Source: Acidimicrobiia bacterium (GTDB taxonomy: Bacteria; Actinomycetota; Acidimicrobiia; Spongiisociales; ZC4RG35). Taken from it: 64,000 nt of DNA. Position 1 is the first letter of the stretch, and every line of letters starts with the position of its first letter. Below are positions 7,074-44,238 of this stretch, one piece after another. The notes below the pieces were generated by a model that had not been told where the DNA came from, did not search any database, and saw only the letters and a list, made by a program, of their open reading frames with translations. Where the stretch lies: the NCBI GenBank assembly GCA_035620735.1, contig DASPGH010000131.1, forward strand, positions 18,218 through 82,217. Direction: 5' to 3'. The position numbers were made by a program, and so were the translations under genes.

Positions 7074-7820
7074 TCACGACTCGACGCCGGCCTCGGCCTT
7101 GGCCTTCTCGTCGTTGTTCGCCGGCTTCTTCTTGGATGCGATCTCCTTGCCTTCGACTATGGCGTCCGCCAGGGCACTGGCGATCAGGTCGGCGGCGCGG
7201 ATGGCGTCGTCGTTCCCCGGTATCACATGGTCGATGGGATCCGGGTCGGAGTTGGTGTCGACGAGGGCGATGATCGGGATTCCGAGACGATCGGCCTCTT
7301 TGACCGCGGTCTCCTCGGTGTTGACGTCGACGATGAAGACCGCGTCCGGGAGACGTGCCATCTCAGAAACCCCTCCCAGGTTCTGCTCGAGCTTCTCCAG
7401 CTCGCGCCGCAGCTTGAGACGCTCCTTCTTGGGACGGGCGTTCATCTCTTCTGTGTCCTCGAGACGACGCAGCTCTTTCATGTAGTACACGCGCTTTTGG
7501 ATCGTCGCGAAGTTGGTGAGCATGCCACCCAACCATCGGTAATTGACGAAGGGCATGCCCGATCGCCGGGCGGCGTTTTCGACCGCCGACTGGGCCTGCT
7601 TCTTGGTGCCGATGAAGAGCACCGAGCCTCCGTCTATGGCGATCTGCTTGACGAACTCGATCGCATCTGCCACCTGAGTGACCGTCTGACGCAGGTCGAC
7701 GATGTGTATTCCGTTGCGTTCTCCGTAGATATACGGACGCATCTTGGGGTCCCAGCGTCTGGTCTGATGACCGAAATGGACACCGGCTTCCAAGAGCTGT
7801 TTCATTGTGACTTCAGCCAC
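7074..7820 (-). CDS. rpsB: 30S ribosomal protein S2
   Basis: The canonical S2 N-terminus ([19 protein letters not shown]) begins at an in-frame GTG at 7820. The track ORF extends to 7892. Confidence 0.95.
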
Positions 7821-8010
7821 AATTGCTCCTTTCTGGTTGTTTCCTCCGCCCGGCGGGCCTGATCGATCGGCTCGATCCGAGGGCCCCCGCATCCGGGATG
7901 CAGCCCCTCCTCAACCGACTCTCGACGAGAGACGGCACCAGAGAGGGAGTTCTCGGGCGTGCGTGATAGACGTGATTCTATGGGTGGCGGGCGAAATTCA
8001 GTAATCCGGC

Positions 8011-9138
8011 TTGGGCCGAGGCTGGCACACTCTGAGGGTGGTGACAGTGGACGACCGGATCATCCGGGAAACGGCCCTCGCAGCCGGAGCCGACACCGTC
8101 GGCTTCACCTCTGCCGACCCCTTCCCGGAAGCACTCGTCACTTTGCGACGTCGCAAAGACAAGGGCATGGCCGGACCCCTTCACTTCACCTACGAAGAGC
8201 CGGAGGCATCGACCGACATCCGGCGGACTTTCCCATGGGCTCGCAGCCTCGTCGTGTTGGGCGCCAGCTACATCGACCACGCCCCACCGCCGGCCGAGTT
8301 CGGGCCCGTGATCGGCCTGTTCGCCACCCGCGACCACTATCGACGGGTTCGCGAGGCAGCCGCCGCCGTGATAAGCCTGATCGAGGCGGCGGGGGCACGC
8401 GCCGACATGGTGGTTGACGACGACAGGTTCGTCGACCGGGCTGCGGCCGTTCGGGCGGGTGTGGGCTGGATCGGAAGATCGACGATGGTGCTCACGCCGG
8501 GTCACGGGCCGTGGCAGCTGTTCGGCTCGGTCGCCACAGATCTCGACCTCGCCGAGACCAAGCCCATGGGACGCACCTGTGGAAGCTGTGTCGCCTGTAT
8601 CCCGGCCTGTCCCACCGGCGCGATCACGGAGGACGGTGTCGACGCCAGGCTGTGCATCTCGACCTGGCTGCAGTCTTCGGGGCCGATACCGCACTGGGTC
8701 AGGCCACTGGTAGAACGTCGAATCTACGGCTGCGACGACTGTCTCACTTCCTGCCCCCCGGGCTCACCGGCAATGGTGGCGTCTCCCGCCAGGACCGAGG
8801 AGCATTCGTTCGCCGAGCTCCTGGGGCTCTCTGACGACGAGTTGATCGAACGCTTCGATTGGTTCTACATCCCTCATCGGGAAGCCAGATTCTTGAGACG
8901 GAACCTCCTGGTCGCCGCAGGGAACTCCGGAGAGGAGGAGGCCGTGGAAGCGATCCACGATCATTTCGGCCATCGCTCCTCCCTGGTCCGCGGTCATGCC
9001 TACTGGGCACTGGCCCGATCCCTGGGAATGGGCGCGTGGATCGCCTTGCGTGAGGCCTACGACCGAGAAACGGTTGCAGACGGTCGTGCCGAGCTGGAAA
9101 TGGCGTTGATGATGCTGCGAGTGCCCAATGGCGGCTAA
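8011..9138 (+). CDS. queG: Epoxyqueuosine reductase (QueG), 4Fe-4S protein with a HEAT-like C-terminus
   Basis: Has a ferredoxin-type cluster motif (TCGSCVACIPACPTGAI) and a second Cys cluster (CDDCLTSCPP). The overall length and architecture fit QueG. Confidence 0.75.
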   Translation: MGRGWHTLRVVTVDDRIIRETALAAGADTVGFTSADPFPEALVTLRRRKDKGMAGPLHFTYEEPEASTDIRRTFPWARSLVVLGASYIDHAPPPAEFGPVIGLFATRDHYRRVREAAAAVISLIEAAGARADMVVDDDRFVDRAAAVRAGVGWIGRSTMVLTPGHGPWQLFGSVATDLDLAETKPMGRTCGSCVACIPACPTGAITEDGVDARLCISTWLQSSGPIPHWVRPLVERRIYGCDDCLTSCPPGSPAMVASPARTEEHSFAELLGLSDDELIERFDWFYIPHREARFLRRNLLVAAGNSGEEEAVEAIHDHFGHRSSLVRGHAYWALARSLGMGAWIALREAYDRETVADGRAELEMALMMLRVPNGG

Positions 9139-9613
9139 ACGAGCCCCGTCGACCAATGCCATCCGGGTCTTGAGGGAGGCCGGGGTCGACTACACGGAGC
9201 ATGTCTTCGATTACAGGCGGTACCCGGGGGCGGACGGCGCAGCCGAGTTTCTGCGGATCGACCCGCATCTGACCGCCAAAACCATCGTCTTCACCACCGA
9301 CATGGGCGGGGGTGTGATCGGTGTGATGCACGGTGACCTGGAGGTTTCGGTGAAAAAGCTGGCCCGTGAGCTGCAGGTGAAGTCGGTGCGACCGGCCACG
9401 CAACGTGAGGCCGACAGATTCACCGGCTATCACTTTGGCGGCACGTCGCCGTTGGGGATGCGGACCGAGCTCCCCATCTTCGCCCAGACCACCCTGACCC
9501 AATTGGACACCGTCTATGTGAACGCAGGGAGCCGTGGCTTTCTGATCGGCATCGATCCCGCCACTCTCATCGATCTGACAGGAGCGGTCGTGGCGGATAT
9601 CGCCGTCGACTGA
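9128..9613 (+). CDS. ybaK: Cys-tRNA(Pro)/Cys-tRNA(Cys) deacylase (YbaK/EbsC family)
   Basis: 161 aa with YbaK-family motifs (IVFTTDMGGGVIGVMHGD, TGYHFGGTSPLGM). Confidence 0.8.
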   Translation: MAAKRAPSTNAIRVLREAGVDYTEHVFDYRRYPGADGAAEFLRIDPHLTAKTIVFTTDMGGGVIGVMHGDLEVSVKKLARELQVKSVRPATQREADRFTGYHFGGTSPLGMRTELPIFAQTTLTQLDTVYVNAGSRGFLIGIDPATLIDLTGAVVADIAVD

Positions 9614-9617
9614 GCCG

Positions 9618-10397
9618 TCAACCCCAGGCCGGGTCGCCGAGACGGTTGCGCATCGACATCATCGTCTTGGCGTGGATCTGACAGACTCGTGACTCGGTCA
9701 CTCCGAGGACGTCACCGATCTCGGCCAAGGTCATTCCCTCGTAGTAGTACAACGTGATGACGAGCCGCTCTCTGTTGGGGAGCCGATTGATGGCATCGAC
9801 CAGGGAGCGTCGGGTCTCTTCGGCCTGGAATTCTGCCTCAGGCGATACTCCTCGGGGATCGGCGATCATCTCCCCCATCGAGGTCGAGGAGTCGTTGGAT
9901 ACGAACTCATCGAGTGCGGCAATTCCAGAACGTCCGATCTGGGCGAGTGCATCCCGGAAGTCCTCGATGTCCATCTCGAGGTCTGCGGCTATTTCGTCCT
10001 CGGTGGGAGGCCGCTGCAGCTTGTGTTCCAGCTCTGCGATCGAAGTCTCGATGCGTCGGGCCCGGGAGCGAACCGATCGGGGCACCCAGTCGAGGGCGCG
10101 CAACTCATCGAGAATGGCACCCTTGATCCTGTTGATGGCGTAGGTTTCGAACTTGAACCCGCGCTCGAGGTCGAACTTGTCGATGGCGTCTATGAGGCCG
10201 AACAGTCCATAGCTGGCCAGGTCGTTCTGATCCACCGACCGGGGCAAACCGGTGCCGACACGACCGGCGACGTACTTCACCAGTGGTGAGTAGTGGAGGA
10301 TGAGACGCTCCCGTGCGTCTCCGTCGCCCGAGGCCTTGAAACGCTCCCAAAGCCCGTCGACCTGAGATTCCTCAGGCCCTTGGGTGGCTTTGGTCAT
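9618..10397 (-). CDS. whiG: RNA polymerase sigma factor of the sigma-28 (WhiG/FliA) family
   Basis: The region 2 to 4 signature ([35 protein letters not shown]) and a C-terminal HTH ([24 protein letters not shown]) are present. Confidence 0.85.
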
Positions 10398-31423: not shown

Positions 31424-32533
31424 ATGAGAGGGGCTCTCACCGACCTGACCGGTTTCGCCACGGCTCTCCGCCGGCGGGGACTGACGGTCACACCGGACCA
31501 GGTCTCCGACATGGCGCGGGCGCTAACCCTGGTAGATCCGTCCAGACGCTCACAGGTCCGGGCCTCGCTGAGGTCTCTGGCAATCACAGATCCGGACCAG
31601 CGGGGACCCTTCGACGAGGAGTTCGCCCGTTTCTTCGAAGGTCTGCTCGACCCGATGGGTCGGCCCGGGGAGGAGCGAGACTCCACCAGTGGGGCTGCGC
31701 TCAAGCCAGTGGCACGATCACCCGAAGGGCATTCTGAGGAGGAGACCAGCTCTCAGGGAGGGACATCGGCCACGAAGCGGGTTGCCACCAGGGATTTCGC
31801 CGACCTGAGCGATGACGAACTGGCCGAGGCGCGCCGGATGGTCATGGCGATGATGTGGCAACCGAGCGATGTGAGGACGAGGAGGTGGTTCCCCTCACGC
31901 ACCGGCTCCCGACCCGACCTGCGGCGCAGCCTTCGCAGCACGACACGTCCCGAAGGCGATCTCATTCCCATTGTCAGGAGCGCCCGCAGAAAGCGACAAC
32001 GTCCCCTGATCGTCATCGCCGACATCTCGGGCTCGATGGAGAAGTACGCCGACGTGTTCCTGGTGTTCGCCCACGCCGCCCAGAGGCGGATCGATGAGGT
32101 GGAGGTGTTCACCTTCTCCACCGAGCTCACCCGGATAACCGACGACCTGAATCGGCGCAGTGCGCAAGTTGCCCTGGATCGGGTGGCCTCCACGGTTCAT
32201 GACTGGTCCGGGGGAACCAAGATCGGTGATGCATTGGCTACCTGGAATCGTGAATGGAGCCGCCGTCTCACCAGAGGGGGTCCCATCGCCCTCATCCTCT
32301 CCGACGGCTGGGACTGTGGGGACCCTTCAGTTCTCGGCCAGGAGATGGCGAGGTTGGCGCGGACGGTCCATCGAGTGATCTGGCTCAACCCCCTAGCCGC
32401 CCATGCCGGCTATCGACCCGCCACGCGCGGGATGCAGGCCGTCCTCCCCCACATCGACCACCTCCTCCCGGCGGCGAGTGTGGTGGATCTACGCGGGGTG
32501 GTTCGACTTCTCGACTCGATGCAAACGCGGTGA
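31424..32533 (+). CDS. coxE: VWA-domain protein, CoxE-like
   Basis: C-terminal VWA with a MIDAS motif (DISGSM ... SDGWD) and the CoxE-type N-terminus. It abuts coxD. Confidence 0.85.
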   Translation: MRGALTDLTGFATALRRRGLTVTPDQVSDMARALTLVDPSRRSQVRASLRSLAITDPDQRGPFDEEFARFFEGLLDPMGRPGEERDSTSGAALKPVARSPEGHSEEETSSQGGTSATKRVATRDFADLSDDELAEARRMVMAMMWQPSDVRTRRWFPSRTGSRPDLRRSLRSTTRPEGDLIPIVRSARRKRQRPLIVIADISGSMEKYADVFLVFAHAAQRRIDEVEVFTFSTELTRITDDLNRRSAQVALDRVASTVHDWSGGTKIGDALATWNREWSRRLTRGGPIALILSDGWDCGDPSVLGQEMARLARTVHRVIWLNPLAAHAGYRPATRGMQAVLPHIDHLLPAASVVDLRGVVRLLDSMQTR

Positions 32534-32760: not shown

Positions 32761-33024
32761 ATGATCGCCGAGGGCATGGGCTCGATGCGGGGCAACCCCA
32801 AGATCTACGAGCTGATCGAGAACTCGCCAAAAGAGGGAGCAAGCCCAACGATTTGGGCCTGGCCACAGGTGATCGACTACTTCAAAGTGGCCGGCCAGCC
32901 CGTCCAGGGTCCCTGGCCGCCGCATCAAGAGCCCAGACCCGACCCCAGCGATGAGTCGTTGCCGGTCGCAGTGCCCGATCCTCATTCGGCGCGAGAACCG
33001 GGTGACGACGCCAACCCGTACTGA
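32761..33024 (+). CDS. Possible small protein (about 80 aa) between coxE and coxM
   Basis: GC3-rich ORF with weak RBS context and no recognisable family. It could be a non-coding spacer instead. Confidence 0.25.
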   Translation: MIAEGMGSMRGNPKIYELIENSPKEGASPTIWAWPQVIDYFKVAGQPVQGPWPPHQEPRPDPSDESLPVAVPDPHSAREPGDDANPY

Positions 33025-33034
33025 GGAGGCAGCC

Positions 33035-33910
33035 ATGTATCCCGCACGTCTCAGATACGAAGCTCCCCGATCTCTCGAAGAGGCCAGCTCGCTCCTCGCC
33101 GACGGCGGTGGAGAGGCCAAGATCCTCGCCGGGGGCCAAAGCCTCGTCCCGATGCTCAAGCTTCGGTTCGCCTCGCCCGAGATGCTGGTCGACATCAATG
33201 AGCTCCCCGGTCTCGGCTACCACGAGCGTGATGCCGACGGGACGATCCGGGTCGGAGCCTTGTGTCGGCACGCCGACCTGGAGAGGTCGACACTCTTGGC
33301 TCGGCACCAGCCGACGATGATGGCGGTCGCTCCTCTGGTCGCCGATCCCGTGGTCAGGAATCGTGGCACATTGGTGGGATCTCTCTGCCATGCCGACCCA
33401 CAGGGCGACTGGGCGTCGGTGATGATGGCGTTGAATGCATCGGTGGTCGTTCACAGCAATCGGGGAAAGCGGACGATCGCAATGAGAGACCTGGTGAGTG
33501 GTCCCTTTCAGAACACGCTCGCGATCGACGAGGTGGCAGTAGAGGCGGTGGTCCCCGCCCCACAGGGAGTGGCCGAGGGTGGTTACATCAAACTGGAGCG
33601 GCGTGTCGGCGACTTCGCCACCGTCGGCGTCGCCGTCGCAGTCGACCGCGTTGGGGGCAACGTCGTCGCAGCCGGGATCGGGCTCACGGGCGTGGGTGGC
33701 TCGACCATCGCGGCGGATGAGGCCGCCGCGATCCTCACTGGCGGGCCGCTCTCCGCGGAGGCGATCGGTGAGGCGGCCGAGTTGGCCGCTGCCGCGGCCC
33801 ATCCCCACAGCGATCATCGGGGAAGTGCGGAATACAAGAGGCATCTGGTCCGGGTGTTCACCAGACGTCTGCTCACCGGTCTCATGACATCTGGAGAGGA
33901 GGCTGCCTGA
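33035..33910 (+). CDS. coxM: CO dehydrogenase medium (FAD-binding) subunit CoxM
   Basis: FAD-binding PCMH-type domain (ILAGGQSLVPMLKLR ... RNRGTLVGSL). GAGGAGG lies 5 nt before the ATG. Confidence 0.9.
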   Translation: MYPARLRYEAPRSLEEASSLLADGGGEAKILAGGQSLVPMLKLRFASPEMLVDINELPGLGYHERDADGTIRVGALCRHADLERSTLLARHQPTMMAVAPLVADPVVRNRGTLVGSLCHADPQGDWASVMMALNASVVVHSNRGKRTIAMRDLVSGPFQNTLAIDEVAVEAVVPAPQGVAEGGYIKLERRVGDFATVGVAVAVDRVGGNVVAAGIGLTGVGGSTIAADEAAAILTGGPLSAEAIGEAAELAAAAAHPHSDHRGSAEYKRHLVRVFTRRLLTGLMTSGEEAA

Positions 33911-34483
33911 ATGACGAGCCTGTTCGAAGAGATCACTCCAACGCCATCATCTCTCGACGAAGTCCCTGTGCGCAAGGTCACGATCACTGTCAACGGACAG
34001 CAGCGATCGGCGATGGTCGAGCCCCGTCTTCTGCTCGTTCACCTGCTCCGACAGGGATTCGAGCTCACCGGCACCCACATCGGCTGTGACACGACCAACT
34101 GTGGGGCGTGCACGGTTCTGTTCGACGGCAAGCCGATCAAGAGCTGCACGATGTTGGCCGTTCAGGCCGACGGGCACGAGGTGATGACGGTCGAGGGTCT
34201 CGCCGGCCCCAGCGAGCTGCACGCCATCCAGGAGGGTTTCAAAGAGGAGCACGGCCTCCAGTGCGGTTTCTGCACACCCGGGATGATGATGACCTCCAAG
34301 GCACTTCTCGACGAGAATTCGAACCCGACCGAGGACGAGATCCGCTGGGCCTTGGGCGGGAACCTGTGCCGGTGCACCGGCTACCAGAACATCGTGAAAG
34401 CCGTGATGTGGGCGGCGGCGAAGCTCGACGGCGCCGCCGAGGCCTCGGAAGACGAAGACGACGATGCGGAGGTGACGGCGTGA
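33911..34483 (+). CDS. coxS: CO dehydrogenase small (2x[2Fe-2S]) subunit CoxS
   Basis: Two iron-sulfur motifs ([11 protein letters not shown] and CGFCTPG ... CRCTGY). Confidence 0.95.
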
Positions 34484-36864
34484 CGGCCCTGGACGAGAGA
34501 AAGATCGGTGGTCTGGGCGCGAGTCGTCGCCGGGTCGAGGACAACCGGTTCATCAGGGGCAAGGGCGGTTATCTCGACGACATCACATTGCCCGGGATGC
34601 TGCACATGGAGATACTTCGCAGCCCCGTGGCCCACGCCAAGATCAACTCGATCGACATATCCAAGGCCATGGGCATGCCCGGAGTCAGGCTGGTTCTCAC
34701 CGGTGAGATGATGGCGGCGCGAAACCTGGCCTGGATGCCAACGCTCTCTTACGACACCCAGGCCGTTCTCGCCACCGACAAGGTTCGATTCCAGGGCCAG
34801 GAGGTGGCGTGTGTGATCGCCGATGACCCCTATACCGCCAAGGATGCCTGTCAAGCCATCGTCGTCGACTACGAGCCGTTGCCCGTCATCATCAACCCGG
34901 AACAGGCTCTCGCCGAGGGCGCCTCGTTGATCCGCGACGACAAGGTGAACCAGCCCGACAACGTGATCTACGACTGGGAGGTGGGCGACAAGGAAGGGAC
35001 CGACCGCGCCTTCGCCGAAGCGGATCTCGTCTCGGAGATCGAACTGCACTACCCCCGCTCTCACCCTTCGCCGATCGAGACCTGCGGCTCCATCGCCGAC
35101 TTCAACCGGGCCACCGAGAAGCTGACCGTCTACATGACGACTCAGGCCCCACACATCATCCGAGCCGCCGTGGCCCTCGTGGCCGAGTTGCCCGAGCAGA
35201 TGATCCGGGTGATATCACCGGACATCGGAGGAGGCTTCGGGAACAAGGTGCCCGTCTATCCGGGTTATGTGGTGTCGATCCTCGCCTCGATCCTCCTCGA
35301 ACGCCCCGTGAAGTGGATCGAAGACCGCACCGGGAACCTGATCTCGACAGGCTTCGCCCGAGACATCTACCTGAAGGGCCAGCTGGCCCTGCGTAGCGAC
35401 GGGAAGATCCTCGGGGTCCGCATGAACACCCTCGCCGACCACGGCGCATTCTTCTCAGACGCCCAACCTTCGAAGTTCAAACTCGGTCTGATCCATTCGG
35501 CGTTCGCCTGCTACGACATTCCCAATGCCCATCTGGTGGCAAAGGGGGTCTACACGAACAAAGCCCCCGGCGGAGTCGCCTATCGCTGCTCGTTCCGGGT
35601 GACGGAGGCGATGTTCTTCCAGGAGCGCATGGTCCAAGCCGCCGCCGACGACCTGGGGATGGACCAAGCCGAGTTCCGGCGGAAGAACCTGGTTCGTGAT
35701 GATGACTTCCCCCACCGCACCCCATTCGGGTTTCTCACCGACTCTGGCCAATACGCCAAGTGCCTCGACGTGGGTCTCGAGGCCATCGGCTATCAAGACT
35801 TCCTGAAAGAGAAGGAGAACGCTGCGAAACGGGGGCGCCGTCTCGGGATCGGGATCTCGGTGATGACCGAGCCTCTCGGCGCAGGGAACAGCCGTGAGTA
35901 CGACATCCTGGGCATAAAGATGTTCGACTCCGCCGAGTTGCGGGTGCACATGACCGGCAAGGCGCTGCTTCGAACCGGGGCACGTTCTCAAGGCCAGGGA
36001 CATGAGACCACATGGGCACAGATCGTCTCCCACGAGCTGGGCATCCCCGCAGAGGACGTGATCGTGGAGGAGGGAGACACCGACACCGCACCCTTCGGGA
36101 TGGGCACATACGCCTCTCGCTCAACGCCGGTCGCCGGCGCCGCGGTCGCCATGGTGTCACGCAAGATAAGGGCCAAGGCCCGCAAACTCGCCGCCCACCT
36201 CCTCGAGATCTCCGAGGAGGACGTCGAATGGGAGCTGGGCCGCTTCTATGTGAGGAGCCAGCCCGACCGTGGGGTGACCATCCAGGAGGCAGCCGCCGCG
36301 GCGTACTCCAACATGCCGGATGGGATGGAGCCGGGGCTGGAGAACACGGCCTATTACGACCCCCCCAACCTCACCTGGCCGTTTGCCTGCTACATCGCCA
36401 CCGTAGAGGTCGACCCCGACACGGGTGTCTGGGACGTGCTACGGGTCGTCGCTGTCGACGACTGTGGGGTGCGGATCAACCCGATGATCGTCGAAGGACA
36501 GATCATGGGGGGTCTCACCGAGGCATACGCCATGGCGAACATGCAGTTCATAACCTTCGACGAGGACGGGAACTGCATAGGCTCCAACTTCACCGATTAC
36601 TTGCTGCCCACGGCGTGGGAGACACCCGGATTCGAGCTCCACGAGGTGGTGACACCCTGCCCCCATCATCCGATCGGGGCCAAGGGCATCGGGGAGTGCG
36701 CCGCCGTCGGCGGGCCTGCCGCCTTCGTCAACGCGGTGATGGATGCCCTGAAAGACACCGGAGTCCGCAACATAGACATGCCCGTCTTCCCCGATCGGGT
36801 CCATCAGGCGATCCAGACAGGCGATGATGTGAGCGGGGCTCCACCGGTGAGAGTGGGAGTATGA
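34480..36864 (+). CDS. coxL: Form I CO dehydrogenase large (Mo-Cu MCD) subunit CoxL
   Basis: GTG start overlaps the coxS stop as GTGA. The form I active-site loop VAYRCSFR is present near 35575-35598. The track ORF (34108..) carries a spurious N-terminal extension. Confidence 0.9.
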
Positions 36865-37817
36865 ATCAATCCCCCGGCGACGGATGGCAGATTCTGGAGA
36901 AGGCGAGCCAGCTCGCCGCACAAGGAGTGCAGCTCGCCCTCGCCACAGTGGTGTGGCGCCAGGCCCCCTCTTCGGGGCATCAGGGGGCCCGGGCAATCAT
37001 CACCGCCGACGGGGAGATTCACGGCTGGATCGGCGGTGCTTGCGCCGAACCGGTTGTGATCCGGGAAGGCCAGCGGGTCATCGCCGAAGGCCACCCTCAG
37101 TTGATCCTGCTCGGTGAGCCGGGCGATTTCGGCCATGTGCCGGAAGGGGTGGTGTCGGTTCCGATGGCATGTCAGTCCGAGGGGGCTCTCGAGCTCTATA
37201 TCGAGCCGGTGCTGTCCACCCCTCGAATGCTGGTCGTGGGTCGGTCCCCCATGGCTACCACCCTCGTCGAGCTGGCCACCGTTCTCGGTTGGCGGGCCGA
37301 TCTGATCGATTCGTCTGATTTCAGGGCCGATCTGGTGGATGGGAATTCGATTGTCATCGTGGCCACACAGGGTCACGACGACGAGGACACCCTGGAAACG
37401 GCGGTGGGCGCGAGCCCCGCCTTCATCGGGCTCGTCGCCTCACAGAGAAGGGGCGAGTCGGTCCTGGGATACCTCGCCGACCGTGGAGTGCCCGAGGAGA
37501 AGCTGCAGCGGGTCAGAGTGCCGGTAGGTATCGACCTTGGTCACACCTCCCACACCGAGATAGCGGTCGCCGTCCTCGCCGAGCTCGTGGCTCTCAAGGC
37601 AAAGGGCGAGTTTGGCCCGACCCCACCCGAGAGAACGGCGGCTCCCGCGCCCGAGACCGCGATCGATCTCGTCTGCGGGATGACTGTCACCGCTGACGAG
37701 ACCGGCCGCCCACTCGAGTACGAGGGGACCACTTACTACTTCTGCGCCCCGGGGTGCCGGGCCGCTTTCGAAAAGGAACCCGAGAAGTTCATCAAGGAGA
37801 CCGTCCGTGCTGATTGA
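36861..37817 (+). CDS. coxF: XdhC/CoxF-family maturation protein fused to a C-terminal YHS/TRASH-like metal-binding domain
   Basis: XdhC N- and C-domains (AIITADGEIHGWIGGACAE ... MLVVGRSPMA) followed by a Cys-rich tail (CGMTVTADETGRPLEYEGTTYYFCAPGCRAAFEKEPEKF). It overlaps the coxL stop as ATGA. Confidence 0.8.
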   Translation: MNQSPGDGWQILEKASQLAAQGVQLALATVVWRQAPSSGHQGARAIITADGEIHGWIGGACAEPVVIREGQRVIAEGHPQLILLGEPGDFGHVPEGVVSVPMACQSEGALELYIEPVLSTPRMLVVGRSPMATTLVELATVLGWRADLIDSSDFRADLVDGNSIVIVATQGHDDEDTLETAVGASPAFIGLVASQRRGESVLGYLADRGVPEEKLQRVRVPVGIDLGHTSHTEIAVAVLAELVALKAKGEFGPTPPERTAAPAPETAIDLVCGMTVTADETGRPLEYEGTTYYFCAPGCRAAFEKEPEKFIKETVRAD

Positions 37818-38391
37818 GAGCTCGATTCACGTACCCCACCCCATCGAGGACGTCTGGAAATTCTGCCAGGACGTGCCACAGGTGGCGGCCTGCCTCCCGG
37901 GGGCCGATCTCAACGAGGAGCTCGGGCCCGACCACTATGCGGGCACAGTGGCCATCAACATGGGCCCGGTGCGACTCAAGTTCGCCGGTGAGGCCAAGGT
38001 GTTGGAGCGGGATGAGGAGAACAAGACCATCGTCATCGATGCCGTGGGCATGGACCAGACCGGCGGCGATCGTGCCAGTCTCGACCTGACCGTGAAGCTG
38101 GCTCCACACGGACGAGGGACAAATCTCGACGTCACCCAGGAGATCCATCTCTCGGGAGCGGCGGCACAGTTCGGGAGAGGCATGATCGGTGACGTCACCC
38201 AGGTGCTGATGATCGACTTCGGGAAGAACATGCAGACCCGGCTCGACGCCTTCGAGCGCGGGATTGCAGCCCACGAGATTCAGGGGAGCCAGAGGGCGAG
38301 TGGTCTGGCCATTGGCCTCAGGGCAGCTTGGATGGCCCTGAAGAGGGTGGCAAGGCGCTTCTTCCTCCCCTACGAGCCAAACCGAGTGTGA
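37807..38391 (+). CDS. coxG: CO dehydrogenase subunit G (SRPBCC family) CoxG
   Basis: 194 aa with CoxG-family similarity (SIHVPHPIEDVWKFCQDVPQVAACLPGA). Confidence 0.85.
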   Translation: MLIESSIHVPHPIEDVWKFCQDVPQVAACLPGADLNEELGPDHYAGTVAINMGPVRLKFAGEAKVLERDEENKTIVIDAVGMDQTGGDRASLDLTVKLAPHGRGTNLDVTQEIHLSGAAAQFGRGMIGDVTQVLMIDFGKNMQTRLDAFERGIAAHEIQGSQRASGLAIGLRAAWMALKRVARRFFLPYEPNRV

Positions 38392-38398
38392 GGAGAGA

Positions 38399-38656
38399 TT
38401 GATGGTCTGGTGGTGGATAGGAAACGCAGTGCTCCTCCTGGTGATCGTGCCGGTGCTCGTGGCGCTGCTCAACAGGGTGTTGGCCGCCCTGGAGCGAATC
38501 AGAAAAGCGTCCGACGAGATACTCGCCGGTGGCGTTCAGCTGATCGGCGAGGTCGACAGAGTCCCCGAGCTCCTGGAAACGACCGACAGGACCATCGCGG
38601 ATGTCTCGAAGGGCGCGGTCAGATATGCCGGCTCCGTGGCGAAGTTGTTGGGTTAG
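38399..38656 (+). CDS. Small single-pass membrane protein, paralog 1 of 5
   Basis: 85 aa with an N-terminal TM helix (WWIGNAVLLLVIVPVLVALL) and a helical tail. First of a tandem paralog array. Confidence 0.5.
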   Translation: MMVWWWIGNAVLLLVIVPVLVALLNRVLAALERIRKASDEILAGGVQLIGEVDRVPELLETTDRTIADVSKGAVRYAGSVAKLLG

Positions 38657-38666
38657 GAGGACGCAA

Positions 38667-38894
38667 ATGCCTGCAGCAGCAGTAGTCACTCTGGTCCTGG
38701 CGGCGTTGATCATCGCCGCCGCGGCGTTGGGGTTGATTCGGGTCATTGGCCACCTCATGGCCACCCTCGACACCCTCAGGGCCCTCACCGGCGGAGTCGA
38801 GGTGGTGGCCGCCAAGACGAGCACGGTCCCGGCAGTGGTCTCGTCGGTCAACGCCAACCTGAAGCCAGTCAGCGATTTCGCCGAGTCGATCTAG
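38667..38894 (+). CDS. Small single-pass membrane protein, paralog 2 of 5
   Basis: 75 aa. AGGAGG lies 6 nt before the ATG. Has a TM helix (VVTLVLAALIIAAAALGLI) and a helical tail. Confidence 0.5.
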   Translation: MPAAAVVTLVLAALIIAAAALGLIRVIGHLMATLDTLRALTGGVEVVAAKTSTVPAVVSSVNANLKPVSDFAESI

Positions 38895-38901
38895 GAGAAG
38901 T

Positions 38902-39165
38902 GTGATGAGCGAACTCTTCGATGGAAACACGAGTTGGCTGGTCGGCTATGTGATCGGTCTGGTCATCGTCCTGGTGGTCGTGGCGCTGGTCGTCCCCATT
39001 CTCGTTCTCGCTCGCAAGATCGGGAATGAGGCGCAGTTGATCGACGACAGTCTGAAGAAGTCGGTGCAAAACACGGCGGCTCTCAACGAGCTGAACGCGA
39101 CAAACACCATGGCGATAAACGTCATCGAGGGCCTCAAGCGCGGCAGACAGCGTCTGGGAGGTTGA
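38902..39165 (+). CDS. Small single-pass membrane protein, paralog 3 of 5
   Basis: 87 aa with a TM helix (WLVGYVIGLVIVLVVVALVVPILVL) and a polar helical tail rich in N, T and Q. Confidence 0.5.
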   Translation: MMSELFDGNTSWLVGYVIGLVIVLVVVALVVPILVLARKIGNEAQLIDDSLKKSVQNTAALNELNATNTMAINVIEGLKRGRQRLGG

Positions 39166-39166
39166 A

Positions 39167-39454
39167 ATGACATTTGCCCTCACAGAGTCGCAGGAGACTC
39201 TCTGGCAGATAGCCAACTGGGCCGGTCTGGCGGTGGTCGTGGCCGTGGCCGCACTCCTCACCGTCCTCGTGCTCTTCGTCCGAACCATCGACCGTCGTGT
39301 CGTCGCGATCAAGGCGACACTCACAGAAGCCGAGGCCAACACCGCGGACGCCGAGTTGCTCGATACCACTTCGGCCGGGGTCGACATGGTTCTCGCCGAA
39401 GGTCTCGAGCATCACCTGTTCCTGGGCAGAGTCCTCGGGAAGGTGCGCTCATGA
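39167..39454 (+). CDS. Small single-pass membrane protein, paralog 4 of 5
   Basis: 95 aa with a TM helix (WAGLAVVVAVAALLTVLVLFV) and a helical tail. Confidence 0.5.
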   Translation: MTFALTESQETLWQIANWAGLAVVVAVAALLTVLVLFVRTIDRRVVAIKATLTEAEANTADAELLDTTSAGVDMVLAEGLEHHLFLGRVLGKVRS

Positions 39455-39810
39455 ACGGCCTGATCGTCTTCACGGTGATCGACGTCGTGCTCCTCATCGC
39501 CGGGCTGGCCATCTACCTCTGGATCGTCGGAGGCCAGCTCACCCGCGTCGCCACCAATCTGGAGGAGTGCAATGACCTGGTTCGCCAGATCAATGCCAAC
39601 GCAGAGACGATCGAAGGCAACCTGGAGCATGTGAATCGGACGGGCGGCGTGATCGCAGGCGCTCTCCCTCTTCTCTACGACATGGCCGAAGGCATCGTGA
39701 CGGGAGCCACCTACGACGCCGACAACGTCCCGGAGAGAGGCCCGGCGGCACCCGCCTCGGGTACCCGGCGCTCCAGGTTGCTCGACGCGGTCGGCTACAA
39801 GCCGGAGTAG
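39451..39810 (+). CDS. Small single-pass membrane protein, paralog 5 of 5
   Basis: 119 aa. Overlaps paralog 4 as ATGA. Has a TM helix (LIVFTVIDVVLLIAGLAIYLWIV) and a helical tail. Confidence 0.5.
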   Translation: MNGLIVFTVIDVVLLIAGLAIYLWIVGGQLTRVATNLEECNDLVRQINANAETIEGNLEHVNRTGGVIAGALPLLYDMAEGIVTGATYDADNVPERGPAAPASGTRRSRLLDAVGYKPE

Positions 39811-39816
39811 AGCGGG

Positions 39817-40266
39817 CTACACCCTTCTCTTCGAGGGGTTGCGGTCCGTGGTCAGGGGGCCGGTGGTCCCAGGGGTCTCATACTCGCCAATCCAGTGGTC
39901 TTTCCAGGACTGGTCGTACTGCTCGGGATTGCAGCCCGGCTCGTAGATCGCGATCAGCTCCCGCATGATCTGCTCCCGATGTGACGCCAGCGCTCCCGGA
40001 GCTTCCAGGTAGCAGATGTGAAGTTTGAACCTGTCGCCCTCGACGCGCTTGAGCCAACAACCGGCCGCAGGGTGATTGAACGGAAAGTGCTCCCGGGACA
40101 GGTCATCGGAATGACCCACGTACAGAACACCATATCGCTCCGGGTTGGTGTCCGGCTTCGGCCTGTACAGGATGGCATAGACGGCGGGACGACTCGGTGG
40201 CGTGAAGCCGGCGAGCAGCCGAGGCCCCTCGAAGGCATACCCGGCGAGAGTGCCGAGACGGATCAA
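39817..40266 (-). CDS. Hypothetical 149-aa protein with a GIY-YIG-like nuclease motif
   Basis: VYAILY, then 11 residues, then YVGHSDDLSREHF, then about 35 residues, then REQIMRELIAIYEPGCN. This resembles the GIY ... YIG ... R ... H ... E ... N pattern of UvrC and I-TevI. It is the last gene of the operon and overlaps the preceding gene by 4 nt. Confidence 0.45.
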   Translation of the reverse strand: MIRLGTLAGYAFEGPRLLAGFTPPSRPAVYAILYRPKPDTNPERYGVLYVGHSDDLSREHFPFNHPAAGCWLKRVEGDRFKLHICYLEAPGALASHREQIMRELIAIYEPGCNPEQYDQSWKDHWIGEYETPGTTGPLTTDRNPSKRRV

Positions 40267-40592
40267 TCTTCTCCCTCTCCTCGATCCCGACTGCGGCCCT
40301 CCGGGATCTGGTTATACCAGTCCAAGCTCTCCTCATGACCTTCGGTCTCGACACTCATCACCGGCCAATCGGGAAGACCTGCTGCAGCAGCCGCGGATGT
40401 GAACAAGGCCATGGCACGCTCCACCGCCAATTCGCTCGTCCCGGCCTCGACCACGATCTGGGCCCCATACGAGTTGGTCCCCATTCCCGTGGCCACTCCC
40501 TCTTGGGGGGCGACGGCATCGGCCAGCTCGACCACTTCCTCCAGGCGAATCTCACGATCACCCTCGGCCTGGAGGGCCACGATCCACCTCAT
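40263..40592 (-). CDS. Hypothetical 109-aa acidic protein
   Basis: GC3-rich and translationally coupled (4-nt overlaps) to the VWA gene upstream and the GIY-YIG-like gene downstream. I recognise no family. Confidence 0.5.
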   Translation of the reverse strand: MRWIVALQAEGDREIRLEEVVELADAVAPQEGVATGMGTNSYGAQIVVEAGTSELAVERAMALFTSAAAAAGLPDWPVMSVETEGHEESLDWYNQIPEGRSRDRGEGED

Positions 40593-41752
40593 CGCAGCGC
40601 TGGGAGTTGGTGAGCGAGCTCTTCGAGACCGGCCAGATCGCGGCCCGACATGAAGAGATCGATGTGAGGCTTGGCAACCATCATGCCCAACGTGGCGGGC
40701 CGGTAGCTGCCCTCATCACCGATGTGGGGGTTTACCCATACCACCCTGTGAGAGAGGAGAGACAGCCGCTCCATGGCCTTCGCGAGGACGGCCGGATCGC
40801 CCCGGTCGAGCCCATCGGAGCAAATGACGACGATGGCGCCGCGGCTCATCCCACGTCGACCCCATTGCTTCACGAAAGTCGCGATGGAATCGCCTATCCG
40901 TGTGCCTCCCTCCCAGTCGAAGACCATCTTGGCGGCGCGGTCGAGCGCCTCGTCGGGACGGCGGCGCTCCAGGGACGGAGTGATCCGGGTGAGACGGGTC
41001 CCGAAGCAGAAGACCTCGACTCTGGCGCTGGCCCGTCGTGCCGAGTAGGCGAACTGGAGAAGGTTGCGCGAGTACTCCGCCATCGAGCCCGAGACGTCGA
41101 GGATCAGCACCAACGGGCGCGACTTTCTCTTTCGCGCACGCCAGAACAACTGGGATGGCTCCCCGTGCTGGCGCATCGTGGCGCGCACGGTGCGACGAAG
41201 ATCAGGACGGCTCTTCGAACGGGAAGGCCGGGTCCGACGGGTGCGACGCCGCGGCGGGATGAGCCTCATCCGATTCATGATCCTTCGAAGCGCCGCCAGC
41301 TCCTCCTCGGTGCATGCCGGGAAAGACTTGTCACGCCAGATCTCGATGTCCGATGCGTTCAAGCCGAGCCTGGCTTCCTCCTCGTCATGGCCTGGTTTAC
41401 CCGGTTCGGTCGCCGGTATCTCGATAACGGCATCGTTCTCGATCTGGGAGCGTTTCAGCTCCCGACGCAACGACTCGGGGATGGCAGGGTCGTAGCCGAG
41501 GAAGAATCGGCGAAATACCCTGTCATATATCGGGATCTGATCGTGCTTGGTGATGAGCGTGGAGCGTCCGGCCCAGTAGAGGTCGAGAAGATCGCCAGGG
41601 TTGAGAGTGGCCATGGCCGCGCAGTAGATGAGCAACTCCCCCGAGCCCACCGGCATGCCCTCGGCGCGAAGCTCCCTACCGAAGCTCACGATCATCTCGA
41701 CGAATGGGCCTCCCTGTGCCAGCTCCGCGTCGATCGGCGATCCATCAGCCAT
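40589..41752 (-). CDS. VWA-domain protein, CoxE-like (second copy)
   Basis: MIDAS motif (DVSGSM ... SDGLD) and a CoxE-type N-terminus. The start is probably an ATG at 41752, which would overlap the MoxR stop as ATGGCTGA. The track ORF extends to 41860. Confidence 0.8.
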   Translation of the reverse strand: MADGSPIDAELAQGGPFVEMIVSFGRELRAEGMPVGSGELLIYCAAMATLNPGDLLDLYWAGRSTLITKHDQIPIYDRVFRRFFLGYDPAIPESLRRELKRSQIENDAVIEIPATEPGKPGHDEEEARLGLNASDIEIWRDKSFPACTEEELAALRRIMNRMRLIPPRRRTRRTRPSRSKSRPDLRRTVRATMRQHGEPSQLFWRARKRKSRPLVLILDVSGSMAEYSRNLLQFAYSARRASARVEVFCFGTRLTRITPSLERRRPDEALDRAAKMVFDWEGGTRIGDSIATFVKQWGRRGMSRGAIVVICSDGLDRGDPAVLAKAMERLSLLSHRVVWVNPHIGDEGSYRPATLGMMVAKPHIDLFMSGRDLAGLEELAHQLPALR

Positions 41753-42524
41753 CGGGCACGAGCTCTTCGAGGTGTTCGAGCACGGCTTCGAGATCGTCCC
41801 GCTCCTTGACCACGGCACCCAAGGTGTCCCGAACGGTCTCGCCGTCCAGTTCCGGCTCACCCAGGACCTCGAGGGTCGCCACCCAGTCCAGGGTCTCTGC
41901 GACTCCAGGGGGCTTCGCCAGATCCATCCCGCGAAGACGGTTGACGGCTGCTACCACCTTGCGGGCGATGGTCTCGGTGGCTCCCGGGTTGCGGGCGAGC
42001 ACGATGTCGACCTCACGCATCGGGTCCGGATAGGGCACCCAGTGGTAGAGACACCGGCGCTTGAGTGCATCGTGCAGCTCGCGGGTCCGGTTGGAGGTGA
42101 GCACCACTATGGGTGGCGCGTTTGCGGAGATGGTCCCGATCTCGGGGATGGTTATCTGAAAGTCCGACAGCAGCTCCAGGAGGAAAGCCTCGAACTCGTC
42201 GTCGGCTCGATCGATCTCATCGATCAACAAGACTGCGCTGTCTCCGGCCCGAACCGCGGCGAGCAGCGGGCGCTCCAGCAAGAACTTGGGACCGAAGAGT
42301 TGGTCGACTTGGTCATCGTCGGCGAGTTGCTGCTCCGAGAGCGCCCGAATCTGCAGCATCTGCCTGGCATAGTCCCACTCGTAGAGCGCCTGGTTGGTGT
42401 CGATTCCCTCATAGCACTGCAGACGGATCAGCTGTTTGCCGAACACCTCGGCCAGGGCTTTGGCCAACTCCGTCTTGCCCACACCCACTTCACCCTCGAG
42501 GAGGAGGGGTCGGCCCAGGCTCAT
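41745..42524 (-). CDS. MoxR-family AAA+ ATPase, CoxD-like (second copy)
   Basis: Walker A (GEVGVGKTE) and Walker B (LLIDEIDRAD). The first canonical start is at 42524. Another 39 in-frame codons upstream (to 42641), homologous to the coxD N-terminus, contain no ATG/GTG/TTG and end at a TAG. Confidence 0.8.
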   Translation of the reverse strand: MSLGRPLLLEGEVGVGKTELAKALAEVFGKQLIRLQCYEGIDTNQALYEWDYARQMLQIRALSEQQLADDDQVDQLFGPKFLLERPLLAAVRAGDSAVLLIDEIDRADDEFEAFLLELLSDFQITIPEIGTISANAPPIVVLTSNRTRELHDALKRRCLYHWVPYPDPMREVDIVLARNPGATETIARKVVAAVNRLRGMDLAKPPGVAETLDWVATLEVLGEPELDGETVRDTLGAVVKERDDLEAVLEHLEELVPDG

Positions 42525-42969: not shown

Positions 42970-43854
42970 TCACCTGGCGGCCGCGATCGCCTCGGCCACG
43001 ATCGCCACCGCGACCTCTCCCGGACTCGATGCGCCAATGTCTAGACCGGCCGGCCCGTGGACCCGCCTCAGATCGGAGACTCCTCGGTAGGCCAACCAGT
43101 CGGCACGGTCGGACTGCATCTTTCGACTTCCGACAGACCCGATGTATCCGCAGCTGCTTTCCAGCGCCGCCGTCAAGCCCGCACCGGCCAGCTCGAGGTC
43201 GTGGGCAGCGATCACCACCTTGTCATGACCGGAGAGTGGCGCGATCAACCCGGTGGCCATGTCCCTCTCTGCGGTGATGTGGGCCTGCCATCCCACCAGA
43301 GGCGCCAGCTCGGCGAGAGCCTCCGCAATCGGGCCTCCCCCCACGATGACCATCTGGGGCACGGCAACGAATATGGAGACCACCCTGTCCTCGGTGATGG
43401 TGGAGCCCGCAGGTTGACCGGAAAACGCGGCCTGAACATCGGCATCGGCTCCCGTGATCGTCATCCGTGAATAGACGCTGACCTCGCTCACCCGATCGTC
43501 TTCCAGAGCGAGCACCAAACAGAGTCGCTCCCGGGACGCGGCCAAGGGCCATAGATCTGCGGGCAACGTGTCGGCGGGCGCAAGGATGCATCGAGCCGTT
43601 CCCGTGGAGGGCAGGTCGGCGATCAGGGCGTCGACCTGAGTTATCTCGACATCGATGAGCCTCCCTGAACTGAGCCGTCCAGCCTCCTCGGCCAGCTTCC
43701 CGTCGAGACTGCCCCTGAGAAGCGATCCCGCCTTCCCGCCACCAGGGGTGAAGGCCACCGCGTCCGACCAGTCCCTCACCTCGAGCCCGTCGACGGCGAT
43801 CAACCAGGCCACGTCGGCGCGGGTTCCGGCTTGCAGACATGCAGCCACTGTCAT
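42970..43854 (-). CDS. XdhC/CoxI-family molybdoenzyme maturation protein
   Basis: XdhC N-domain and Rossmann C-domain ([17 protein letters not shown] ... SVGSRKM). The track ORF extends to 44010. Confidence 0.8.
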
Positions 43855-43929
43855 TGCTATGCCATACACGGCGAGGACTCTACGGCCGGCCCGCGACACC
43901 GGCCGGGCCCAACTACCGTTCAGAGCGAG

Positions 43930-44238
43930 ATGAGAAATCAGCTCGCATTGCGCAACAAGTGGAAAGAAGAGGGCAAGAAGGTCGCCGTGGCGACCGTCAT
44001 CAAGGTGCATGGAAGCGCACCCCGCCCCGAGGGCTCCAAATTCCTCGTCTCATCGACGGGGGACATGGAAGGCTCTGTCAGCGGAGGGTGTGTCGAGAAC
44101 GACGTCTATCTCCACGCCCAGGAGGTGATCGAGTCGGGTAAGCCGAAAAAGGTGACGTACGGCATCGCCGACGAGGACGCCTTCGAGGTGGGGATGTCGT
44201 GTGGGGGCACCATCGACGTCTTCATCGAGCCGTGGTAG
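43930..44238 (+). CDS. Stand-alone XdhC N-terminal-domain protein (102 aa)
   Basis: Matches the XdhC_CoxI N-domain only ([39 protein letters not shown]). Confidence 0.6.

Follow-up and report, generated by a model that had tools for sequence, protein, structure and literature searches.

A conserved five-gene membrane-protein array behind coxG in actinobacterial CO dehydrogenase operons and its possible role as a membrane platform

The window analysed here, a 64,000-nucleotide stretch of an Acidimicrobiia genome (contig DASPGH010000131.1, about 64% G+C; all coordinates are positions in this stretch), carries on its + strand an operon for the form I Mo-Cu carbon monoxide dehydrogenase (CODH), in the order coxM-coxS-coxL-coxI-coxG-S1-S2-S3-S4-S5. 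The five small genes at the end of this operon, S1 to S5, are the subject of this report. They are genuine genes under strong purifying selection, and the five families to which they belong are inherited together. From topology, helix periodicity and covariation, their products probably form a hetero-oligomeric complex of single-pass membrane proteins with a cytoplasmic, parallel coiled-coil stalk. We further propose, tentatively, that this complex may serve in the cox operon as a membrane platform for CODH and CoxG.

Atmospheric CO oxidation by molybdenum-containing CODH (Mo-CODH) is a globally important process, and the coupling of the enzyme to the quinone pool was solved recently, for Mycobacterium smegmatis only, via CoxG. 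A large share of the actinobacterial and acidimicrobial CODH operons carries five extra membrane-protein genes of no described family, and the carriers include soil and freshwater Acidimicrobiia that are abundant in metagenomes. Full-text literature searches turned up no description of small membrane proteins encoded within cox clusters. If the five proteins are a membrane partner of CODH or CoxG, the current coupling model would be incomplete for most of the carriers; as an autonomous module, they would instead make up a five-subunit membrane complex that is widespread in Actinomycetota and so far uncharacterised. Either reading can be put to a direct test, since two carriers are in culture, Amycolatopsis ultiminotia JCM 16898 (locus L059) and Nocardioides cheoyonin KR10-350 (L069).

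Conservation and co-inheritance of S1 to S5

S1 to S5 follow coxG directly as consecutive genes on the + strand and encode 75 to 119 amino acids, just as a first-pass annotation of this DNA had described them. S1 (38399-38656) has 85 amino acids as an open reading frame (ORF), with a WWxGN motif, a predicted transmembrane (TM) helix and a second helical part that contains an invariant GG and an invariant Pro and carries an RY..SV..LL motif at the C-terminus; its likely true start is the ATG at 38402, which gives 84 amino acids and matches the length of the orthologs. In S2 (38667-38894, 75 amino acids), the TM helix is followed by R-V-I-G-H, a GG and a Pro. S3 (38902-39165) has 87 amino acids as an ORF, or 86 from the likely start at ATG 38905, which again matches the ortholog length, and consists of the TM helix and an unbroken polar helix of predicted coiled-coil type with conserved NT layers and the C-terminal end GLKRGRxRLGG. 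The TM helix of S4 (39167-39454, 95 amino acids) precedes a helix in which the NT pair and the C-terminal EGLEHHLFLGRV motif are both invariant. S5 (39451-39810, 119 amino acids) has Asp-11 within the TM helix, then a long helix carrying HxNRTGGVxAGALPLLY, and finally a disordered, flexible tail with PASGxRRSR and a VGY motif. The gaps from coxG-S1 to S4-S5 are 7, 10, 7, 1 and -4 nt, the last being an ATGA overlap; the spacing of 7-10 nt or ATGA overlap that had been reported thus applies to most junctions but not to S3-S4. A Shine-Dalgarno-like purine run precedes each of the five starts, and a search for promoter or terminator signals within the array found none.

The coding nature of the five ORFs was supported by several measures. 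The G+C content at third codon positions (GC3) was 0.77-0.85, compared with 0.34-0.47 at second positions (GC2), and coxG and coxI showed the same pattern. Homologs of S5 formed 3839 clusters at 90% identity, and the best 120 of them were full length and 77-98% identical, mostly from Acidimicrobiia metagenome-assembled genomes (MAGs). In each family, 44-51% of the alignment columns were at least 90% identical among 69-77 distinct orthologs from two classes of Actinomycetota, and the identity to the window was 53-92% for the S1-S5 orthologs versus 47-87% for CoxG. The ratios of nonsynonymous to synonymous substitution (dN/dS; Nei-Gojobori, window against eight relatives) were 0.02-0.33, mostly 0.04-0.2, and equal to or below those of CoxG; dS was near saturation and the ratios are therefore rough, yet they lie far below 1. 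S1-S5 are more conserved than CoxG, and the cox-linked array is also more conserved than CoxI. Because the conservation is this strong, with dN/dS around 0.1, the diversifying pressure that had been suggested for the array is contradicted. The possibility that these small ORFs of no database family are spurious or non-coding was rejected with near certainty; it is refuted by GC3, by the number of homologs and by dN/dS, and the conserved lengths and conserved order rule it out as well. Homologs, coding signal and predicted TM helices are all present, with orthologs at 104 loci. An exact-sequence lookup returned no recorded gene with a product identical to S3 of the window.

The relation among the five proteins was analysed by profile-profile comparison of the ortholog alignments with hhalign. 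S3 and S4 were matched with a probability of 96.8% (E 2.4e-10), and the other nine pairs gave 0.2-36%; hidden Markov model searches among the window proteins also produced no cross-match except S3/S4. The homology among all five that is expected of tandem duplicates in a single paralogous family was thus not detected, and the first-pass description as a highly diverged paralog array is not supported. These profile comparisons indicate that S1-S5 are five distinct orthologous families, with S3/S4 as an anciently duplicated pair. Pfam and NCBIfam scans gave no family above threshold for any of the five, in agreement with the earlier remark that they are not among the classical named cox genes.

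The distribution of the array was investigated in GTDB using one genome per species, and S5 relatives were found in 356 species genomes. Eighty loci were fetched and searched by tblastn with all window proteins. The order coxM-coxS-coxL-(coxI)-coxG-S1-S2-S3-S4-S5 was kept wherever the contig reached, and it was followed downstream by the same convergent genes (two ORFs of unlabelled family, then coxE and coxD); the check suggested in the first-pass annotation, whether cox clusters of related genomes carry such arrays, thereby had a positive outcome. The coxMSL genes, with the AYRCSFR motif in CoxL, lie on the same strand as the array with tight spacing, and the coxL genes of the related loci share 79-93% identity with that of the window. 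Many more cox-linked arrays came from a metagenome scan in which divergent S5 relatives served as seeds, and 104 complete collinear arrays (type A) were available overall. Upstream sequence of 800 nt or more was available for 93 arrays; the end of coxG lies within 200 nt of S1 in 84 of them, and in two others coxG is broken in the assembly. The carriers belong to two classes, Acidimicrobiia and Actinomycetes, the latter including Nocardioides, Marmoricola, Amycolatopsis, Pseudonocardiaceae, Micromonosporaceae, Frankiaceae and Mycobacteriales. Under the title 'uncultured Acidobacteriota bacterium', many MFD MAG records (L016-L036) also carry the cox cluster with the array, at 78-81% identity to Acidimicrobiia, and these titles probably do not reflect the true taxonomy.

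Several arrays are rearranged. Thirteen of the 104 arrays have an extra small gene between S2 and S3, which divides them into (S1,S2) and (S3,S4,S5); such loci are L059 of A. ultiminotia (insert at 9258-9461), L062, L066, L078, L083, L102, L146 and others. Two of these inserts, from L059 and one other locus, were tested and matched DUF1059, a predicted small metal-binding protein, with 26-31 bits against a cut-off of 21.1. In the metagenome cox cluster L108 (about 7800-10360), S1 to S5 are followed by a second S3', S4' and S5'. Divergent arrays from Pseudonocardiaceae MAGs (type B) likewise comprise all five families, here circularly permuted to S3-S4-S5-S1-S2, and their S1 is 35-40% identical to the window S1 over the full length. 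Because all rearrangements respect the sub-modules (S1,S2) and (S3,S4,S5), and all five families always occur together, there is strong comparative evidence that the five proteins would work as one unit.

Topology and predicted packing of the five proteins

Each S protein has a single hydrophobic stretch, which lies at the N-terminus (Kyte-Doolittle mean over 19 residues, 2.65-3.49) and is followed by a tail with heptad periodicity, and the earlier prediction of one N-terminal TM helix plus a helical tail is thus upheld. In all five families, the count of Lys and Arg beside the TM helix is about 0 on its N-terminal side and 1.1-4.3 on its C-terminal side. By the positive-inside rule, S1-S5 are predicted to have the N-terminus outside and the C-terminus inside, with cytoplasmic tails. 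The tails had been called rich in Asn, Thr, Gln and Glu, on the example of a peptide that belongs to S3. Compared with the cox enzymes, Asn (5.4% versus 2.4%) and Thr (7.7% versus 5.4%) are indeed more frequent, whereas Gln is not enriched and Glu is barely higher.

Hydrophobicity and column conservation of the tails oscillate with a period of 3.45-3.55 residues in all five families (shuffle p ≤ 0.006, except for S4 hydrophobicity, p 0.06), a period that is the signature of heptad coiled coils. An AlphaFold2 monomer model of S5 contained one helix from 2 to 83 and a disordered tail, with a predicted local distance difference test score of 76, and that of S1 contained helices 2-52 and 54-83 with a break at the conserved Pro. 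The five consensus sequences were placed on a common scale that runs from the basic residue first encountered behind the TM helix. On this scale, conserved layers of small or polar residues were found at the same height, namely GG at +18/19 in S1, GG at +17/18 in S2, NT at +19/20 in S3, NT at +19/20 in S4, and N at +18 in S5. A Pro at +30 is conserved in both S1 and S2. A small/polar layer at equal height is what a parallel bundle in register would give.

Covariation was calculated as mutual information with average product correction (MI-APC) on 105 paired arrays, corresponding to about 56-60 effective sequences. The top 50 inter-protein pairs had a median height difference of 7 residues, compared with 30 over all pairs, and no random draw of 50 pairs equalled this match. 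When CoxG was added to the analysis, 46 of the top 50 inter-protein pairs were between S proteins and the other 4 involved CoxG; among the top 100, CoxG was present in 18 pairs. The column numbers would lead one to expect 56%. Because the CoxG pairs are rarer than expected, the coupling among the S proteins is not merely shared phylogeny.

Shared topology, heptads, matched layers and inter-subunit covariation are thus all observed as would be expected for a parallel coiled-coil hetero-oligomer, each as an indirect signal, and the assembly of S1-S5 with each other is fairly well supported by them. In the model that we propose, S1-S5 would be five different subunits of one membrane complex, each crossing the membrane once. 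The five cytoplasmic helices would lie side by side, parallel and in register, as a coiled-coil stalk with the conserved small/polar layer about 18-20 residues above the membrane. S5 would end as a flexible tail with short conserved motifs, and the complex would be composed of the two sub-modules (S1,S2) and (S3,S4,S5).

The Huc hydrogenase stalk HucM and the hetero-hexameric Mce needle are actinobacterial helical stalks that connect the membrane with a trace-gas or lipid machine and handle hydrophobic cargo. By analogy, the stalk of S1-S5 might be a conduit or holding site for menaquinone, with the Gly/Asn-Thr layer as its chamber, a reading that we consider highly doubtful. It would fit the equal height of the small/polar layer in all five helices, the weak matches that S5 gives with a designed 5-helix barrel and with Mce4_CUP1 (E 0.08), and the function of CoxG as a quinone shuttle (PMC12202499). 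However, these S5 matches are compositional, and S1-S5 would resemble HucM and Mce as helical stalks at the membrane with no homology to them. Helical barrels have four hydrophobic positions per heptad, whereas the hydrophobicity strings of the tails show 2-3, which looks more like an ordinary a/d-type coiled coil than a tube.

An acidic residue lies within the TM helix of S5 in 85 of the 104 type-A arrays and in all four type-B arrays, and it is rare in lone S5 genes. Its interpretation as a partner-dependent feature is suggestive and not strict. The lone S5-like genes ('type 2') occur in unrelated contexts (L088 4197-4643, L089, L091, L105 and L166). Their products have a linker rich in Pro, Ala, Ser and Thr, and end with the invariant motif GVGY[LM]D, which looks like a docking peptide. 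A natural fusion was also found (P0227, 325 amino acids), in which an S5-like N-terminus is joined to another TM helix and to a long repeat helix rich in Asn, Thr and Ile.

Likeness to known membrane proteins was examined by profile searches. S1-S5 share their architecture with DUF948, in that small proteins start with a single TM helix and continue as a cytoplasmic tail of coiled-coil or otherwise helical type, as judged from the predicted features, and the first-pass comparison with this family stands in that respect. By score it does not: the five window proteins had no match to the profile (PF06103) at E ≤ 1, and S1, S2 and S5 had no individual match. S3 and S4 orthologs aligned from the first profile position with 12.3 and 14.8 bits, respectively (range 12-15), far below the gathering score of 37.2. 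When the five proteins were concatenated, 12 of 34 arrays matched DUF948 (best E 1.8e-6; 13.6 bits for the window array). In addition, DUF948, which is mainly a Firmicutes family and includes Staphylococcus aureus FacZ (PMC10914604), is not known as a five-gene hetero-set or in linkage with cox genes. The resemblance to DUF948 is real in architecture, and for S3/S4 it may go back to very remote homology. Subunit b of ATP synthase is similar in that an N-terminal TM helix and a long stalk helix tie a soluble catalytic head to the membrane, but the S proteins are much shorter, comprise five different subunits and have no ATP synthase context. Its profile (ATP-synt_B, PF00430) matched one S4 ortholog with 18.7 bits (E 0.0019), below the cut-off of 28 bits, and 2 of the 34 concatenated arrays at E ≥ 0.067. 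By profile score, S1-S5 belong neither to DUF948 nor to ATP synthase subunit b.

A search of 1.84 billion representatives with the S5 profile gave 214 clusters (50% identity) at E ≤ 1e-3, and the S5 family is narrow because it has only these 214. A match with E 4.5e-34 to P0132 (2718 amino acids, 13 stretches) was discarded as a compositional hit to a trimeric-autotransporter coiled-coil repeat. No relative of solved structure emerged when the PDB was searched by sequence with S1, S4 and the S5 profile; the S5 profile gave only weak matches to designed coiled coils, a methyl-accepting chemotaxis protein and ATP synthase b (E 0.77). CoxB, CoxC, CoxH and CoxK of Oligotropha carboxidovorans are likewise membrane proteins from a cox cluster, of unclear role. 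They differ from S1-S5 in being polytopic and of larger size, and some of them contain an MHYT sensor domain; no Pfam domain of that kind was found in S1-S5.

Possible roles in and outside the cox operon

In this operon, the complex would be made together with CoxMSL, CoxI and CoxG, and its likeliest role would be that of a membrane-side platform holding the soluble Mo-Cu CO dehydrogenase and/or the quinone shuttle CoxG. The array is tightly coupled in translation to coxG, which we count as a link to CODH and CoxG. The platform would be most important where the C-terminus of CoxG is a mere amphipathic basic helix. The window CoxG ends with such a helix, AAWMALKRVARRFFLPY, and not with a clear TM helix; its maximum 19-residue hydropathy is 0.92 (median 1.10 in 69 orthologs), under the usual TM range, and the basic amphipathic helix is conserved in the array-bearing clusters. 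The CoxG of M. smegmatis extracts menaquinone and has been described as a protein with a membrane anchor of its own, a TM helix at the C-terminus (Kropp et al. 2025, PMC12202499; review PMC13525633). The two systems share the operon position and the presumed need to bring CoxMSL and the quinone shuttle to the membrane, but in mycobacteria the TM helix is reported to lie within CoxG, whereas here an amphipathic CoxG helix is accompanied by five separate membrane proteins. The M. smegmatis cluster, numbered coxL MSMEG_0746, MoxR 0748, CoxG 0749 and VWA 0751 (PMC6794299, PMC12657314), appears to have no S1-S5, because the gene numbering in these papers leaves no space for five genes after coxG. 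A search of plasmids with CoxG returned mostly non-CODH SRPBCC genes, which were of no help for the anchor comparison. The tether to the membrane that the first-pass annotation had listed among the roles for S1-S5 is plausible from these features, and the platform is, in our view, possible rather than probable. The complete statement, a hetero-oligomeric S1-S5 stalk that is also a membrane platform for Mo-CODH and CoxG, is put forward as a proposal with somewhat less than an even chance of being right.

Several observations weigh against this proposal. The AlphaFold2 monomers of S5 and S1 show helices only. The covariation is statistically modest, given the number of effective sequences and a phylogeny that is only partly controlled, and covariation between the S proteins and CoxG was not enriched, the top pairs avoiding the C-terminal helix of CoxG. 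The contrast with the mycobacterial CoxG anchor comes from the papers cited above and not from sequences compared here. Complete cox-type cassettes of S1-S5 with no cox gene up to 8.8 kb upstream were found at five loci, L123 (8897-10342), L126, L135, L152 and L154, and the type-B arrays have no cox genes nearby either. With five orphan cassettes and four type-B arrays, the association of S1-S5 with cox genes is not exclusive, and the partnership with CODH and CoxG is weakly supported by the present data.

The neighbourhoods of the orphan cassettes differ by locus and include genes for a thiamine pyrophosphate enzyme, a phosphoesterase, TetR, ArsR and others. The type-B arrays adjoin glycine-reductase (grd) genes and MerR-TOBE regulators in L086 (7830-9209, - strand), an mce operon in L169 (8153-9512), MarR in L170 (8065-9499) and a STAS gene in L171 (8055-9491). 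An AHSA1/SRPBCC gene lies just upstream of the array in L123, and it is absent from the sister loci; a conserved core of SRPBCC plus array was rejected accordingly. A tblastn search of plasmids with S5 found nothing.

The same five-gene set outside cox operons, partly permuted, argues for a self-contained module, and the complete cassettes without cox genes mean that the module can work without an adjacent CODH. S1-S5 could be a general membrane module that acts autonomously in Actinomycetota, such as a membrane-anchored coiled-coil complex for starvation or stress like the DUF948, YtxH or DUF883 proteins, which would be co-regulated with CODH during persistence and would have no direct mechanistic part in CO oxidation. 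The 295 clusters of type-B S1 alone, the varied contexts of the lone S5-like genes and the sub-threshold similarities to DUF948, DUF883 and ATP-synt_B agree with such a module, as do the unrelated neighbourhoods of the orphan and type-B arrays, and the earlier suggestion that the genes might be unrelated passengers is partly supported to this extent. We nevertheless regard the autonomous module as somewhat unlikely: most arrays occupy one fixed position of the cox operon in two classes, they are translationally coupled to coxG, and a mere co-regulated passenger would hardly be expected to surpass CoxG and CoxI in conservation, as the cox-linked array does.

Another possibility is a membrane-associated scaffold for the handling of Cu and/or Mo in the maturation of the CuSMoO2 active site, whose partners would be the XdhC-YHS chaperone and the MoxR/VWA pair and not the mature enzyme. 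The adjoining coxI has a YHS/TRASH metal-binding domain, and the genes inserted between S2 and S3 were of the DUF1059 type in the two cases tested. Potential metal ligands are conserved or invariant in the array itself, namely E-x3-HH in S4, EEC in S5 and a His at the membrane boundary in S2. Outside cox operons, MerR-TOBE regulators adjoin two arrays that differ in arrangement, those of L086 and L145, and TOBE is an oxyanion- or molybdate-binding domain. These regulators are a weak hint of a link to the array, and the L123-type loci and L169-L171 have neither them nor another metal-related neighbour. The array also sits in the structural operon and not in the convergent coxD/coxE operon, S1-S5 match no known metal-binding family of Pfam or NCBIfam, and to our knowledge five single-pass helices are not a metal-transport architecture. 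A metal scaffold is unlikely on this balance.

Beyond the platform for Mo-CODH and CoxG, the proposal can be extended to a new kind of docking device for respiratory enzymes, a hetero-pentameric stalk of single-pass proteins, in which the Gly/Asn-Thr chamber would bind or pass the menaquinone head group, a metal or an oxyanion. Such a stalk would couple Mo-CODH/CoxG to the membrane in most CO-oxidising Actinomycetota, in place of the mycobacterial TM anchor of CoxG, and paralogous copies would serve other soluble partners. This extension is speculative, and we think it improbable in full.

Neighbouring genes of the cox cluster

Upstream of the array on the + strand, coxM (32951-33910) was identified by Pfam FAD_binding_5 and CO_deh_flav_C, and coxS (33911-34483) by Fer2_2. 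The translation of coxL (about 34480-36864) contains the AYRCSFR active-site loop of form I. The coxI-like gene (36861-37817) encodes an XdhC chaperone fused to the C-terminal YHS/TRASH domain (Pfam XdhC_CoxI, XdhC_C and YHS, E 1e-13 to 1e-22), and coxG (37807-38391), of the SRPBCC quinone-shuttle family, matched Pfam COXG with 62.9 bits.

Convergent with S5 is an operon on the - strand that spans 39817-42524, and its arrangement is kept in the related loci. Its genes are two conserved ORFs without a Pfam or NCBIfam family, of 149 amino acids (39817-40266) and 109 amino acids (40263-40592), coxE (40589-41860; Pfam VWA_CoxE, 188 bits) and the MoxR AAA+ gene coxD (41745-42524 as listed; Pfam AAA_5). 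Only 6 nt separate the stop codons of S5 and the first of these ORFs. Both the 149- and 109-amino-acid ORFs keep their position in nearly all related loci, with 43-77% identity, and are probably further uncharacterised cox accessory genes. The window also contains a second VWA_CoxE gene (31424-32533, + strand) and a further XdhC_C gene (42970-44010, - strand), and in the related loci L001 and L004 an entire second MoxR/VWA/XdhC set adjoins the cox cluster. In these two loci, a small ORF of 91-113 amino acids with no Pfam family is located directly upstream of coxM (L001 3235-3576, L004 3269-3544). In L001 to L003, genes for an extracytoplasmic function sigma factor and a protein of 280 amino acids are inserted between S5 and the convergent operon.

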